The translations under genes and the position numbers were made by a program. From Escherichia phage vB_EcoS_ESCO41: 50,800 bases of DNA. This document shows positions 10,187 through 50,270 of this stretch, one piece after another (within the stretch, counting starts at the first letter, position 1; the number at the start of each line of letters is the position of its first letter). Below the pieces are notes generated by a model. The model saw only the letters and a program-made list of their open reading frames with translations. It was not told the DNA's origin and searched no databases. Location: sequence record NC_047820.1. One strand, 5' to 3'.

Positions 10187-10735
10187 GTGAGATTCAGCGA
10201 TATTTTTACATACAAAAGCGGAGAGGTTTTCTGGAATGGAAGGCCAGAAAGTGATTTTAGTAAAATGAGTGCATATCACGCGTTTAATAGGATGGTTGGC
10301 AATACTGCTGGATACCTAGATAAATCAAACGGATACTGGTATGTGTGGATTACAATTGGCGGTATTGAAAAGAAAATACCACGATCACATATTGTGTGGT
10401 GTATTCACAATAATGCAGCCATCGTTCCAAAAGGGTTTGTTATTGATCATATAAACCACGTAAGAGATGATGATAGGATAGAAAACCTTGAACTTAAAAG
10501 CTATAGAGGAAACAACAGAAACCTTTCAATATCAAAAAGGAATAAAAGCGGTTGCGTAGGTGTTACATGGTATTCTCGCGATGAAATGTGGATGGCTTGC
10601 ATAATGGGTGATGACGGAAAGAACAAAAATCTTGGCAGGTATAATGACTGGTTTGATGCGGTTTGCGCAAGGAAGAGCGCGGAGCATGAGATTGGGTATC
10701 ACACAAACCACGGCAAGGATAGCGAGAATTGCTAA
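10187..10735 (+). CDS. HNH homing endonuclease (GTG start)
   Basis: IDHINHVRDDDRIENLEL matches the HNH/AP2-type motif; paralogous to 12823 and 40179 genes. Confidence 0.75.
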   Translation: MRFSDIFTYKSGEVFWNGRPESDFSKMSAYHAFNRMVGNTAGYLDKSNGYWYVWITIGGIEKKIPRSHIVWCIHNNAAIVPKGFVIDHINHVRDDDRIENLELKSYRGNNRNLSISKRNKSGCVGVTWYSRDEMWMACIMGDDGKNKNLGRYNDWFDAVCARKSAEHEIGYHTNHGKDSENC

Positions 10736-30168: not shown

Positions 30169-30211
30169 ATAGTATCGCATCCTTGCGATCAGTGTTTAGC
30201 AATTAGTGCTA
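30169..30211 (-). promoter_or_regulatory. palindrome-promoter cassette (minus): TAGCACTAATTGCTA + 22 bp + TACTAT
   Basis: Palindrome (plus 30197-30211) overlaps the Rha-like stop; leader CCATCGAAACGAAACG at plus 30149-30164. Confidence 0.6.
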
Positions 30212-33239: not shown

Positions 33240-33683
33240 ATGCCACACGTAATCACTGGCCAGATCCGTAAATCACCATTCACTAAAGAAGGAAGCAACA
33301 ACAACGGACGTTGGAAAATGTATGCCGTCGAACTTTCTGAGCGCATGAAGATTCGAAATCAGAATGGCGAGGATGAGACGGTTTATAGCAACTACCGCGC
33401 TACATTCTTCGCAAAAGAAAACGTTATGCAGTGGTATGATGAAGCGTTCCAGGAGGGAAAGGTTGTTTCAATTTCTGCCGACACTCTTCATTTATCGTCT
33501 CGACAGGGTAATGATGGAACCGTTTACGTCACCGCTGAAATGATCCGGCCTCAGCTGCAATTCAGCCAGCGCGAACAAGCGCAGAAGCAGAGTCAAGGAC
33601 AACAACAGCATCAGCAGAATCAGAGACATCAGCAGCAGCAGCCACAACAACAAAAACAATTCGAAGACGATATACCGTTCTAA
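33240..33683 (+). CDS. ssb: single-stranded DNA-binding protein
   Basis: 147 aa; Gln/Gly-rich linker and canonical acidic tail ..QQKQFEDDIPF. Confidence 0.8.
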   Translation: MPHVITGQIRKSPFTKEGSNNNGRWKMYAVELSERMKIRNQNGEDETVYSNYRATFFAKENVMQWYDEAFQEGKVVSISADTLHLSSRQGNDGTVYVTAEMIRPQLQFSQREQAQKQSQGQQQHQQNQRHQQQQPQQQKQFEDDIPF

Positions 33684-37465: not shown

Positions 37466-37508
37466 ATCATACCTCATCAATGAGAAATGTCTTTAGCTTT
37501 TCGTGCCG
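37466..37508 (-). promoter_or_regulatory. degenerate palindrome-promoter cassette embedded in the 3' end of the HTH gene: CGGCACGAAAAGCTA + 22 bp + TATGAT
   Basis: Plus 37494-37508 palindrome-like, -10 at plus 37466-37471, then leader and gene 37235..37423. Confidence 0.45.
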
Positions 37509-37959
37509 CATCGTTAGCGGCCTTAATCTTGCGCCATGAACGACACTCTGGCTTAGTGGCTAGTTCAGCCTCGGTGACGACGCGCAGCATGTGACGCTTT
37601 TTGCAACGCAGCGTTAGCGGCTTACCGTTCCCGTCGAATTGCAGATCCGGTCGGCAGAACGTAGCGCGGAATCCCTCTCCAGTTCGTTTGTATCGGTTAT
37701 GAGCCAGCTGAGCGCCACGGGCCGACATCATGCCGCGCTTAAACCATTCCTCAACGGCCTGGCGACTAACTTTCAGTTGCTTTGCGATATTTGCCTTCGT
37801 TCCGTAGAAGTCGAGAACCATTTCCAGTCGCGCCCGAAGCCCCGCCTTTACTTCATCTTTTAAAACGTAGTAACCTGAAGGTCGTTTTCGTTGCTTTTTG
37901 TCTTCAGTGCGGACTGTTCCGTTGTTACCGTTAATAGTTCGCTTGTCAACTGCTTTCAT
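37477..37959 (-). CDS. basic DNA-binding protein with helix-turn-helix (candidate transcription regulator)
   Basis: HTH-like TKANIAKQLKVSRQAVEEWFKRG; Lys/Arg-rich; divergent from the helicase gene with a palindrome in between. Confidence 0.5.
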   Translation of the reverse strand: MKAVDKRTINGNNGTVRTEDKKQRKRPSGYYVLKDEVKAGLRARLEMVLDFYGTKANIAKQLKVSRQAVEEWFKRGMMSARGAQLAHNRYKRTGEGFRATFCRPDLQFDGNGKPLTLRCKKRHMLRVVTEAELATKPECRSWRKIKAANDAARKAKDISH

Positions 37960-46379: not shown

Positions 46380-47963
46380 TTACCCCAGCAATCTCGGATT
46401 AATGTAAATTTTATCACCAATCAGGCACGTATAGTTCTTCTCATCCAACATAGGGATTAGGTGATCCTTGATGCGAGTCATCACACCAGCTTGCCCTTCA
46501 AAGGGTTTGACCTTACGCGCAGCTTCATATAGGGATCGGACACCTACAACGCCTTTCCCGTTCTTGCCTTGCTTGATCAGTATGTCTATCAGCTTGTTCA
46601 TCTCCGCATGGTCGCCAGCGTGACCAGCGGCGTTGGCAGATGACAGATAAGTCTTACTCAGTTCCTGGAACATAATTACCGCTTCCTGCATTGTGTCAAG
46701 CTCAATCTCTCTGGACTTCTGCGGACTCCCGCCATTGGGATTAAACCAGTTACGCACAGTGTGAAGAACAGCCGCGATCCTGATAGCCTGCTTATCAAAC
46801 TTACCAAGCGCGCCGCGAAGCATTGTGTGTGAATACTTCCCGCCGTCCGCAAGGTGAGGCTCCATATCCTGACGCGCACGGTTGAGATATTTCATCGCCG
46901 ACGTGCTCACTGTCAGGTTTACTTCGTGTTCGCTCATGATCTCATGGACCAGACGGAAGTAGTCCGCCTTGAGTCCGCCATCAATCGGCTCATATGTTGA
47001 TTCGCCTTTCTCATCTACGAACACACGCTCACCAAGGAATGACTTCTCACGCACAAGCAGGAAACGCTCGGATACACCGATACCACGCGCGCCAGCGTTC
47101 ATGATCGCGTTTATCGTTTCATCCTGTGCAATTACAGAGATGCAACCCATCGCAATAAAGCTCATGTTATTGTCTGCGTTCGCACGGGCGATAGATACGT
47201 TACCAGCATCCCACGCCTTAAGCACAAGCTCGCTGTTCGTTTTCTTTGAGCCGTCACCATAGGTCATGCCTAACAGTGAGTTCACGCTCGTTGCTTCATC
47301 CGAGATAACTGCAAAGTTGCCCTGGCGGTTGTTGATTCGCGCAAGACCTTCCGGCGTGGTGTCGGATACGGGGAAAACGATGTCACAGAGTCGTTCAAGT
47401 TTTTCTTCAAGCTCCTCTTTCTCCTCAAACAGAGCCGCCATATCAGATGGTGATTTTTCCTGCTTCATCTCCTTGGATAGAGCGGAGAGCTTAGCCATAA
47501 TCTTCTTGCGGTCACGCTTTCGGATCTCGTTGAGTCGCTCAGTCTCTGCGATCATTGGGGCCAGAGAAAGTGAGTTGATGGCTGATTTACCTGTCGATGG
47601 CGGCTGACTGGTTACGACGTAAAGAGCGGTCGGCTGTTGTGTTCCGTGATACTCAACCGTAAATCGGCCCAGCATGGCGGCTGATATGCATCCGAGGAAA
47701 TGCATGTAAGCGGACGACTCTGGGAACTGAACAGAACGAGCGGCATTGCTTGACAGTTTACCAACGACATCATAATCGTTACCAAGTGAGATAACCGGAT
47801 ATTTGTCACCGCCTGAGTCAATCTCTGTTGGGGCTTTCCAGAACGACTGGCTTTGCCTGTATCCGTTCGCATTGATGGCAACGCGCAGAGGCGGGAGGTT
47901 ATCGGCGGCGGCGACAGCCATGACCTGATCGATTGACAATTTATCTTCGTTGAAATCAAACAT
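46380..47963 (-). CDS. P-loop NTPase, putative replication ATPase/helicase (SF3-like)
   Basis: Walker A SQPPSTGKSA, Walker B FAVISDEA; 527 aa; termini homologous to the 174-aa protein at 1149..1673. Confidence 0.55.
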   Translation of the reverse strand: MFDFNEDKLSIDQVMAVAAADNLPPLRVAINANGYRQSQSFWKAPTEIDSGGDKYPVISLGNDYDVVGKLSSNAARSVQFPESSAYMHFLGCISAAMLGRFTVEYHGTQQPTALYVVTSQPPSTGKSAINSLSLAPMIAETERLNEIRKRDRKKIMAKLSALSKEMKQEKSPSDMAALFEEKEELEEKLERLCDIVFPVSDTTPEGLARINNRQGNFAVISDEATSVNSLLGMTYGDGSKKTNSELVLKAWDAGNVSIARANADNNMSFIAMGCISVIAQDETINAIMNAGARGIGVSERFLLVREKSFLGERVFVDEKGESTYEPIDGGLKADYFRLVHEIMSEHEVNLTVSTSAMKYLNRARQDMEPHLADGGKYSHTMLRGALGKFDKQAIRIAAVLHTVRNWFNPNGGSPQKSREIELDTMQEAVIMFQELSKTYLSSANAAGHAGDHAEMNKLIDILIKQGKNGKGVVGVRSLYEAARKVKPFEGQAGVMTRIKDHLIPMLDEKNYTCLIGDKIYINPRLLG

Positions 47964-48634: not shown

Positions 48635-48677
48635 AATATACAGGAAAAGCCCCGAAGGGCTTTAGCAATTAGTGCTA
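48635..48677 (-). promoter_or_regulatory. palindrome-promoter cassette (minus): TAGCACTAATTGCTA + 22 bp + TATATT
   Basis: Plus 48663-48677 palindrome overlaps stop of methyltransferase-like gene; hairpin AGCCC-ttcg-GGGCT. Confidence 0.6.
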
Positions 48678-49343
48678 TTTGTTACTTTCATATAGTGCGC
48701 GAGCAAACCCCTCAGGTGTTAATGATCGGAGTACTTTTGTCTTTGCAGACTTTCCGCCGCAGTATTTCCAGGCCCAGAAGAACCCAATGCTCTCGACTGG
48801 CTTTTTAATCGGTTCAACAAATCCATTCCCACACCAAATACATGTCTTTTTATTATAGGCGTTACGAGGGGGCATCCTGGGGTGATAAACTTCATCATGT
48901 TCAACGTAACCGCCATAATCGCAAGGGTGAAAATAGAAGTCAGGCTTACGCCACAGGCTTGAAAGCTTGCCTACCGGATTCTCGACCATCCAGGGTGCCT
49001 GGAAGTGATTTCCGACTTCCTCGACGAGCTTCGCATTAGCCAAGGCATACGCCAGTTCATCCTCACTGCGCTCATGCTGTGATCCAGACTGAGAGAACAG
49101 CGTGCAATCAGGGAATCCGATAACCATCTGCGCCGGAGGCAGGCCGAGTAATTCACACTTGGTGATGAAATCCTTGTCAATCCACATATTGACGTAGTGG
49201 ATGTTCTCATGCTTCATCTTGATATGGTATTCGCCATGATTACCAGAGTCCGCGTTGAAACAGTAGACGGTGTGACCATCTTCCGCCCATGGCAGGCCAG
49301 CGATGCCGGATCCGTCAAAAAGACAATAAATTACCTTTTTCAT
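48675..49343 (-). CDS. compact C5-cytosine methyltransferase-like protein (putative)
   Basis: Motif I-like LFDGSGIAG, motif IV-like GFPDCTLFSQSG (Pro-Cys), motif VI-like ENPVG; only 222 aa, no obvious target-recognition region. Confidence 0.4.
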   Translation of the reverse strand: MKKVIYCLFDGSGIAGLPWAEDGHTVYCFNADSGNHGEYHIKMKHENIHYVNMWIDKDFITKCELLGLPPAQMVIGFPDCTLFSQSGSQHERSEDELAYALANAKLVEEVGNHFQAPWMVENPVGKLSSLWRKPDFYFHPCDYGGYVEHDEVYHPRMPPRNAYNKKTCIWCGNGFVEPIKKPVESIGFFWAWKYCGGKSAKTKVLRSLTPEGFARALYESNK

Positions 49344-49498
49344 TTCTTCTTTTCCTTCTCAATTGCTTTCTGTGTGATTTCGTAACTGCTTTGCAAGTCT
49401 TCAACCTGAGCGCTGGTGCTCCATGGATACCATCCTTGACCTGAGAGCTTCGCGATCGTGTCGTTGTCGTAGTAGTTCAAATCGGATGGCTTGAGCAT
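49340..49498 (-). CDS. small hypothetical protein (52 aa, below ORF-track cutoff)
   Basis: RBS GAGGTGAAATA before ATG; TAATG overlap upstream and ATGA overlap downstream. Confidence 0.3.
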   Translation of the reverse strand: MLKPSDLNYYDNDTIAKLSGQGWYPWSTSAQVEDLQSSYEITQKAIEKEKKK

Positions 49499-49737
49499 TA
49501 TTTCACCTCATCAAACGTTGCGATGCCAGGGATGAACATTCCGACCTTCCATCCTGCGATAGCAATCCAGCCAGAATCGTGCTTGTGCGGTCGCTCAGCG
49601 CCATTAATTACCCACTCGTTCGGGATTGTCTTACCTTTAATGATTAGCGGCTCAGCGTCGTATACAGAGCCTTTTACGAACGGTGTCAAAACTTTCTTGT
49701 CGGTGCTGGTGATGCAATTTGTGCATATTACTTTCAT
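49498..49737 (-). CDS. hypothetical protein (79 aa)
   Basis: ORF with RBS, in coupled gene chain. Confidence 0.45.
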   Translation of the reverse strand: MKVICTNCITSTDKKVLTPFVKGSVYDAEPLIIKGKTIPNEWVINGAERPHKHDSGWIAIAGWKVGMFIPGIATFDEVK

Positions 49738-49746
49738 GTTATCGCC

Positions 49747-49962
49747 TTAGAACGGTATTCCGTCGTCAAATTTTAAGCGGTAGTCGAAATCATCACCGAT
49801 TCCGTCGACTGACTGGTTGCTCTCGCTTTCCAGATCCATATCCATAATGCCGAGAGCGTCATCAAGTTCTATACATCCATAAGCTACCTTGAGCGCCCAC
49901 TCTTCATTAAGTCCGGCTTCAAGTGCCGCGCGGTGGCGGCTCCAGAAATTATCTTGATGCAC
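49747..49962 (-). CDS. small acidic protein ending in SSB-like tail ..FDDGIPF (GTG start)
   Basis: 71 aa, highly acidic; C-terminal DDGIPF mirrors the SSB tail DDIPF of 33240..33683. Confidence 0.4.
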   Translation of the reverse strand: MHQDNFWSRHRAALEAGLNEEWALKVAYGCIELDDALGIMDMDLESESNQSVDGIGDDFDYRLKFDDGIPF

Positions 49963-49964
49963 TG

Positions 49965-50189
49965 TTAGCTCCAGGAATTGATGTAAAGTGAATTGTCGTT
50001 TAACAGGTTGACCATCTCAGCACGGGTAAGGCTACGGATGATTGAGCCTGGATGAGTGCCAACAACGTAGCGGTCGAACTCACGGCGCGTAATGGTTATT
50101 TGGCTTACGCCTGCGGCGCGGTCCAGCTTGACGATTGCACGGCCTTTTGCTTCGATGTGTGCTACTACGTTCTGAGCTTTAACTGACAT
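49965..50189 (-). CDS. hypothetical protein (74 aa)
   Basis: Strong RBS AAGAGGAAG after cassette and leader. Confidence 0.5.
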   Translation of the reverse strand: MSVKAQNVVAHIEAKGRAIVKLDRAAGVSQITITRREFDRYVVGTHPGSIIRSLTRAEMVNLLNDNSLYINSWS

Positions 50190-50227: not shown

Positions 50228-50270
50228 ATTATGCCTCAATCCGTGAGGCTTCGTTTAGCAATTCGTGCTA
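50228..50270 (-). promoter_or_regulatory. palindrome-promoter cassette (minus): TAGCACGAATTGCTA + 22 bp + CATAAT
   Basis: Plus 50256-50270 palindrome immediately after upstream stop TAA; leader TTCATCGAAACGAAG. Confidence 0.6.

Follow-up and report, generated by a model that had tools for sequence, protein, structure and literature searches.

Genomic context of the gene at 49747..49962

The window, that is, the whole 50,800-nucleotide stretch of DNA analysed, is the genome of a T1-like siphovirus of the family Drexlerviridae, which falls in the genus Nouzillyvirus as judged by its nearest relatives. It carries a leftward early operon in which small ORFs are followed by an orf5-like gene, the gene at 49747..49962, two further small ORFs, a methyltransferase gene and the genes for a 141-aa protein and a DUF3987 ATPase, and the map of phage T1 shows the same order of orf5, orf6, methyltransferase and DUF3987 ATPase. 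The gene at 49747..49962 (minus strand), a homolog of T1 orf6 (phrog_9085), starts with GTG, stops with TAA and encodes 71 amino acids, with the translation MHQDNFWSRHRAALEAGLNEEWALKVAYGCIELDDALGIMDMDLESESNQSVDGIGDDFDYRLKFDDGIPF. Of some 900 T1-like records, at least half contain a T1 orf6-like gene, in syntenic position.

The upstream partner is a T1 orf5-like gene (49965..50189, minus strand; phrog_4344), which encodes 74 amino acids and whose stop codon lies 2 nt before the GTG. In 65 of the 71 related loci an orf5-like gene precedes the T1 orf6-like gene on the same strand, with gaps that range from 1 to about 350 nt and are no longer than 3 nt in 20 of them. The predicted structure of its product is well folded (pLDDT 81-90), of the alpha+beta type and made up in part of five strands. 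The product has a conserved C-terminus, NSxYIxSW; Foldseek returned nothing significant, and no fold or family match was obtained for it.

Downstream, two small ORFs encode 79 amino acids (49498..49737, minus strand; phrog_4448) and 52 amino acids (49340..49498, minus strand; phrog_4548), respectively. They occur in just one or two of the 71 related loci, suggesting that the junction between the T1 orf6-like gene and the methyltransferase gene is a variable insertion point in a block that is conserved in other respects. The DNA methyltransferase gene itself (48675..49343, minus strand) lies downstream of the T1 orf6-like gene in 64 of the 71 loci. Further along the operon, a 527-aa P-loop protein with a DUF3987 domain (46380..47963, minus strand) carries annotations that vary between DNA helicase and putative ATPase (RavA-like); the DUF3987 ATPase was found in 905 phage records and probably serves T1-like phages as replicative helicase or initiator. 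The curated annotation of T1 lists a primase, helicases, an SSB, an ERF recombinase and exonuclease VIII, and no DNA polymerase, which implies that T1-like phages rely on the replication proteins of their hosts.

Coding status and start codon

The sequence-only reading had described 49747..49962 as a highly acidic 71-aa ORF which ends in DDGIPF and depends on a GTG start. Translation bears out this description, since the product contains 17 Asp and Glu residues and only 5 Lys and Arg residues (pI 4.05) and has that C-terminus. The GTG start was upheld as well. A Shine-Dalgarno sequence, GGAG (49969..49972, minus strand), lies 6 nt 5' of the GTG within the last codons of the upstream gene, and the same arrangement is found in CJ19 and T1. 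Because the stop codon of the upstream gene is so close to the GTG, the two genes are probably translationally coupled. The GTG is retained in all nine Nouzillyvirus genomes compared, and the corresponding codon in the alignment is ATG in T1 and most other relatives.

Moreover, the protein matches phrog_9085 over its full length (E 6.5e-36, residues 1-71 against profile positions 1-69 of 69), and a family profile search also matches it (E 3.6e-29). Homologs were detected by tblastn in 454 phage records, phage T1 among them, a count that is a lower bound, as a 71-residue query is near the sensitivity limit for Klebsiella phages. Across the nine Nouzillyvirus genomes the whole gene has a pN/pS of 0.116, indicating purifying selection. 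A downstream ATG was considered as an alternative start, but the conservation of the first 49 residues, and the purifying selection that acts on them, led to its rejection. Judged from these comparisons, 49747..49962 is a real gene and its GTG start is sound. It is highly improbable that the ORF is not translated; such a view could appeal to the GTG start codon, whereas the PHROG match, the 454 records, the low pN/pS, the conserved Shine-Dalgarno sequence and the ATG starts of relatives at the same position all speak against it.

The SSB-like C-terminal tip

The last seven residues, FDDGIPF (residues 65-71; 49750..49770, minus strand), resemble the C-terminal tips of E. coli SSB (FDDDIPF) and of the phage's own SSB (FEDDIPF). 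The phage SSB (33240..33683, plus strand; tip EDDIPF) serves here as the comparison point; it had been read from the sequence as ending in DDIPF, and its translation indeed closes with KQFEDDIPF, while weak TIGR00621/ssb matches were found over its C-terminal half. E. coli K-12 SSB ends in MDFDDDIPF, with which the phage tip LKFDDGIPF shares six of nine residues, and six of seven over the last seven, so that the claimed likeness of the tail to an SSB tip is confirmed. The ORF tip and the phage's own SSB tip are equally identical to the E. coli tip. Position -4 is Gly in the ORF and Asp in E. coli SSB, and the acidic stretch before the tip therefore reads D-D-G in place of D-D-D; six acidic and two basic residues are present among the last 22. 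The IPF is followed directly by TAA, which places a hydrophobic-Pro-Phe sequence with a free carboxylate at the extreme C-terminus.

Such an end is rare in the window. Among 884 stop-to-stop segments of at least 30 aa, only three end in IPF, namely the SSB, the ORF and one antisense non-gene. The last is a 72-aa segment at 10532 (minus strand), antisense within the structural genes, which ends in AFIPF; we take it as a chance occurrence, because its context is non-acidic and it lies opposite long coding ORFs.

The tail is also under unusually strong constraint. In the nine Nouzillyvirus genomes, pN/pS is 0.013 (at a pS of 0.32) for residues 50-71 and 0.17 for the N-terminal domain; by this measure no part of the protein is more constrained than the acidic tail, despite its predicted disorder. 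A pN/pS this low in the presence of many synonymous changes indicates that the constraint acts on the protein and not on the nucleotides. A tblastn search with a 25-mer tail query recovered the same gene alone, in 12 Nouzillyvirus records, and thus found the tail in no other protein family. An explanation of the SSB-like tip by chance was rejected in view of the family conservation, the selection and the rarity of IPF ends.

The last 12 nt of the gene (49747..49758, minus strand) and of the phage ssb gene (33672..33683, plus strand) are identical, ATACCGTTCTAA. They include ATA, the rarest Ile codon, which accounts for 13% of the Ile codons in eight long genes; among nine related genomes, two have ATC at this Ile and one has TTT for the final Phe. 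This shared stretch may hint at a common origin or gene conversion of the tip, although it is too short to decide.

Domain structure and predicted fold

An AlphaFold2 model, built on a 27-sequence alignment, divides the protein into two parts. The N-terminal domain (residues 1-49; 49816..49962, minus strand) is predicted to be helical, with helices at residues 6-16, 20-28 and 33-49 and a pLDDT of about 80. The end of the third helix carries the near-invariant motif ALGxMDMDxES (residues 36-46; 49825..49857, minus strand), and invariant positions in the family comprise R9, A13, G17, L18, V26, L33, A36, L37, G38, M40 and E45. The acidic tail (residues 50-71; 49750..49815, minus strand), QSVDGIGDDFDYRLKFDDGIPF, is predicted to be disordered (pLDDT below 55) and in this respect resembles the linker and tip of SSB.

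No usable Pfam match was obtained for the ORF or for 17 family members, NCBIfam gave no match for the 71-aa protein, and the PDB gave no usable match either by sequence profile or by Foldseek with the AlphaFold model. An OB fold is absent, as the model is all-helical and neither Pfam nor NCBIfam gave an SSB match (PF00436/TIGR00621). The only Cys of the protein is C30, outside the tail, and the protein thus lacks the Cys4 knuckle of its relatives. A likeness to the DNA mimics Ocr, ArdA and gp5.9 was looked for as well; no Pfam, PDB-sequence or Foldseek match pointed to one, and acidity alone is common.

The orf5-like protein was co-folded with the ORF product as a fusion through a GS linker, based on 26 naturally paired sequences. 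The tail stayed below a pLDDT of 50 in this fusion, a weak negative result obtained without interface metrics, and the models thus give no sign that the orf5-like neighbour is the receptor of the tail.

The T1 orf6 family and its tail types

Relatives were collected by a word-indexed protein search together with a viral contig scan (71 loci), and also by an exhaustive profile search, which gave 42 matches in 1.84 billion representative proteins. These comparisons identify the gene as the counterpart in Nouzillyvirus of phage T1 orf6 (CPTT1_074, AAP49993.1), to which its product is 55% identical over the full length. The family (phrog_9085/9323) is annotated as hypothetical throughout, except that a small number of Warwickvirus members bear the label "putative cytosine DNA methylase".

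The constant part of the family is the helical domain that ends in ALGxMDMDxES, and the sequence that follows it differs by lineage. In the lineage of the window the tail is an acidic stretch, GDDFDYRLKFDDGIPF, and T1 and its relatives have GDDINEDVDDYIPW or DDDDYIPW, the T1 protein itself ending in DVDDYIPW. TLS-like and Warwickvirus-like members carry a Cys4 knuckle and then the end, in the pattern C-G-C-x5-C-x2-C-F-P-F, and in Webervirus (Klebsiella phages) the residues after the knuckle are IPFW, VPFW or VPFL. Among scattered members from metagenomes the endings are FDFDQLPF, DFDNNHLPF, DYDDFIPW, GDEIPW, MGIPF, EHVPF or AYIPF. Most relatives have the knuckle in place of the acidic tail, and the largest subgroup is non-acidic (as in CKRCFPF), with Lys or Arg neighbours; the mean charge of the last 15 residues is -3.9 for knuckle-free tails and -0.67 for Cys4-knuckle tails. 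The knuckle presumably binds zinc. The arrangement C-x-C-x(5-8)-C-x2-C directly before [IF]-P-F was seen in L020-L057 (TLS/Warwickvirus-like), L058-L075 (Webervirus) and P0052-P0076.

Despite this diversity, the extreme C-terminus is conserved. A Pro-Phe or Pro-Trp end is found in 117 of 130 distinct small members, nine more have one extra residue after the Pro-Phe, and an aromatic residue stands at or next to the C-terminus in 126 of the 130. All of 96 distinct tails have Pro at -2. Their last residue is Phe in 81 and Trp in 15, while position -3 is Ile in 72, Phe in 18 and Leu, Met or Val in others, so that I/F/L/M/V accounts for 95 of the 96. As aligned here, the acidic SSB-like tail is a lineage-specific form of a more general hydrophobic-Pro-aromatic C-terminal motif, and the family combines a constant helical module with an exchangeable C-terminal end, which in T1-like phages is hydrophobic-Pro-aromatic throughout.

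The ALGxMDMDxES motif is kept in all small members and also in larger relatives (143-309 aa) without the Pro-Phe end. These larger proteins (L074 2827..3333, L078 2725..3318, P0070, P0075, P0079, P0081 and P0083-P0089; contigs of 69 and 159 kb) have the same helical module with ALGDMDMD and extra N-terminal domains, and their C-terminus is different but conserved, with either GGEDDNTPPLEVLMAGGWAAWEYQNEKNAWLDSRL or a CPAC...CPAC ribbon. The presence of the module and ALGDMDMD in larger proteins of other, bigger phages suggests that the module is mobile.

Possible function of the tail

Partners of the SSB tip include ExoI, RecQ, RecJ, RecO, PriA, the chi subunit of Pol III, DnaG, Ung and RNase HI. 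In these interactions a hydrophobic pocket edged by a basic lip takes up the last residues of SSB, above all Pro176 and Phe177, including the free carboxylate of the latter, and the Asp residues before them contact a basic ridge; Pro-Phe are the critical residues of the tip, as seen in the ssb113 mutant P176S. The sequence-only reading had suggested a decoy for host SSB-tail-binding proteins or a means of recruiting them to phage DNA, a suggestion that the analysis supports in part. We tentatively propose, from sequence comparison and structure prediction, that the tail of the phage protein may be an SSB-tip-like docking peptide, displayed by a helical specificity domain and aimed at an SSB-tail-binding pocket. 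On this view the SSB-docking pocket of host, or possibly phage, proteins, which is hydrophobic and basic, would receive the terminal Ile-Pro-Phe and its free carboxylate, and the Asp residues upstream of it would contact the basic rim of the pocket. Less firmly, the helical domain could provide a second contact, making the binding tight and specific for one partner; such a contact is proposed because a single monomeric tail would compete poorly with abundant SSB, which is a tetramer presenting four tails. By filling the SSB-docking site of its partner, the protein might uncouple this partner from SSB-coated DNA and could act as a bipartite competitive inhibitor or decoy. A sensible target would be a nuclease or helicase that attacks the ssDNA intermediates of recombination or replication of a linear, recombination-dependent phage.

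Several features favour docking at an SSB-tip pocket. The tip is identical to the end of E. coli SSB at six of seven positions, the disordered tail with its tip recalls the architecture of SSB and bears the strongest constraint in the protein, and Pro at -2 is invariant, as in the critical Pro-Phe of SSB. In addition, independent knuckle-free lineages repeat the acidic and aromatic context (DDDDYIPW, DYDDFIPW, FDFDQLPF and DFDNNHLPF), and the terminal motif is kept when the Cys4 knuckle is swapped for an acidic stretch, which suggests that the end itself is the functional part. The position of the gene in an early operon that adjoins replication functions, including the DUF3987 ATPase/helicase, and the dependence of T1-like phages on host replication proteins point in the same direction. 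However, the proposal is weakened by the largest subgroup, which is non-acidic and Cys4-anchored (CKRCFPF), by the Trp in place of Phe in T1 and the Gly in place of Asp at -4 in the ORF, and by the extra residue in Webervirus, which removes the free Phe carboxylate. Two options remain for the family as a whole: either the target pocket is more permissive than those known, or the common target is not an SSB-tip pocket.

The latter option amounts to a docking motif unrelated to SSB, with an SSB likeness that is convergent or incidental in the Nouzillyvirus and T1 lineages. We give this slightly less credence than the proposed SSB-type docking. In its favour, just the last three residues are common to the whole family, and in most members they sit on a Cys4 knuckle whose neighbouring residues are basic or neutral. 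The family also accepts Trp, an additional residue at the end, and Phe or Met at -3, and the larger relatives with the N-terminal domain and MDMD motif have quite different ends. A motif unrelated to SSB leaves the identity with the host tip hard to explain, as well as the repeated appearance of an Asp-rich, Phe-containing SSB context (DFD...LPF, DYDDFIPW, DDDDYIPW and FDDGIPF) in several independent knuckle-free lineages; to our knowledge, no other bacterial docking system reads an [IL]-P-F-COOH end. An adaptor function, in which the tail occupies SSB-tip pockets while the helical domain holds a phage component (the DUF3987 helicase, the primase or DNA structures), would recruit a host factor, such as Pol III (via chi), PriA or DnaG, into the phage replisome and would not block it. 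A replication accessory would be expected to be as widespread as this gene, which is syntenic in almost every related locus and occurs in no fewer than half of the T1-like records; the operon is shared with the DUF3987 ATPase/helicase, T1 has no annotated DNA polymerase, and there is a precedent in T7, whose gp4 and gp2.5 bind the polymerase through acidic tails ending in Phe. The adaptor is nonetheless unlikely in our view, as the phage SSB already has a canonical tip and the one phage-protein co-fold (with the adjacent gene product) showed no interaction. Even less probable is a purely structural role of the C-terminal residues, through packing on the helical domain or knuckle, or their use as a proteolysis tag. 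Such a role could draw on the knuckle variants, where the motif comes straight after the last Cys and could be part of a mini-fold, whereas the tail is disordered in AlphaFold models both alone and in the fusion, and the motif persists where an acidic stretch has taken the place of the whole knuckle; the C-terminal degrons known from E. coli, for their part, look different.

Within the proposed docking at an SSB-tip pocket, we lean slightly towards inhibition over recruitment, because the protein is a small, acidic early product encoded in a block of small early genes, and because the phage SSB already offers a recruiting tip. On the other hand, the near-universal syntenic presence beside replication genes argues against inhibition, and its frequency among T1-like records fits a core replication accessory as well as an inhibitor. 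More generally, it is conceivable, with a confidence well short of even, that small early proteins of T1-like phages graft an SSB tip, by way of an acidic tail or a zinc knuckle, to tap the host SSB hub, the helical domain directing each of them to one partner.

Comparison with known systems

The phage protein shares with the C-terminal segment of E. coli SSB a disordered acidic stretch, the sequence F-D-D-x-I-P-F and a free C-terminus, and Pro at -2 and the aromatic residue at -1, which matter in SSB, are the most conserved positions of its family. Unlike SSB, it has neither an OB fold nor predicted ssDNA binding, its body is a 49-residue helical domain, and its position -4 is Gly. T1 orf6 is a true homolog in the same early-operon position after orf5 and differs by its DVDDYIPW end.

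The tails of the T7 SSB gp2.5 and of the helicase-primase gp4 both dock on the same partner, the phage's own polymerase. The ORF product is similar to them in being a second phage protein with an SSB-like tail and an aromatic end, but it has no sequence relationship with them, and T1-like phages have no annotated polymerase. Ocr is a small, very acidic early protein that occupies the binding site of a host protein. Likewise, T7 gp5.9 is a small, very acidic early decoy that occupies a host protein's binding site (PMC9836394). Both mimic DNA by a folded surface, whereas the candidate mimic in the ORF product is a short linear peptide, and there is no homology. Bas52_0087 is an SSB-like trigger of the DRT10 defence system with an FDDDIPF tip, and was suggested to interface with host SSB partners such as ExoI/SbcB (bioRxiv 10.64898/2026.04.29.721553). 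It has two predicted OB folds, unlike the ORF product, which has none. Two other candidates were set aside: the CapRel trigger Gp54 of the T1-like phage Bas11 is a different protein, a 66-aa beta-barrel, and the bNACHT11 paper is unrelated to the ORF.

Our literature searches found no described non-SSB protein that carries an SSB tip, and no SSB-tail mimic. Two articles describe the SSB tip as a common docking handle for at least 17 E. coli proteins of replication, recombination and repair (PMC10018359, PMC7145534), and the tip is pursued as an antibiotic target (PMC5872125, PMC10143822). Mimicry of the motif of this known interaction hub on a new protein family is a plausible reading of the ORF from its sequence. 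If it is correct, the ORF product would be the first demonstrated case of the SSB-tip docking code being exploited by a protein that is not itself an SSB; it would also be a natural inhibitor or adaptor that acts, through a peptide motif, on a validated antibacterial target. It would represent a new viral way to take over or blunt host DNA metabolism, would show which SSB partner matters most to a T1-like phage, and would offer evolved high-affinity scaffolds for inhibitor design, zinc-knuckle presentation included. Should it be wrong, the family still defines an unexplained, strictly conserved hydrophobic-Pro-aromatic motif at the C-terminus.

A repeated 16-mer upstream of the gene pair

A near-palindromic 16-mer, TAGCACGAATTGCTAA (50255..50270, minus strand), precedes the pair formed by the orf5-like gene and the ORF by about 65 nt. 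The sequence, TAGCAC-N4-TTGCTAA, has 10 copies in the window against 0 expected from shuffles, at 1886, 2183, 5275, 32466, 36149 and 42383 on the plus strand and at 30196, 48662, 50255 and 50765 on the minus strand. Those copies that were compared with the ORF coordinates fall just upstream of, or at, gene starts. The 16-mer probably unites a phage promoter (-35 TTGCTA) with an operator, and a Cro/C2-like HTH protein encoded at 37477..37959 (minus strand) is a candidate for its regulator.
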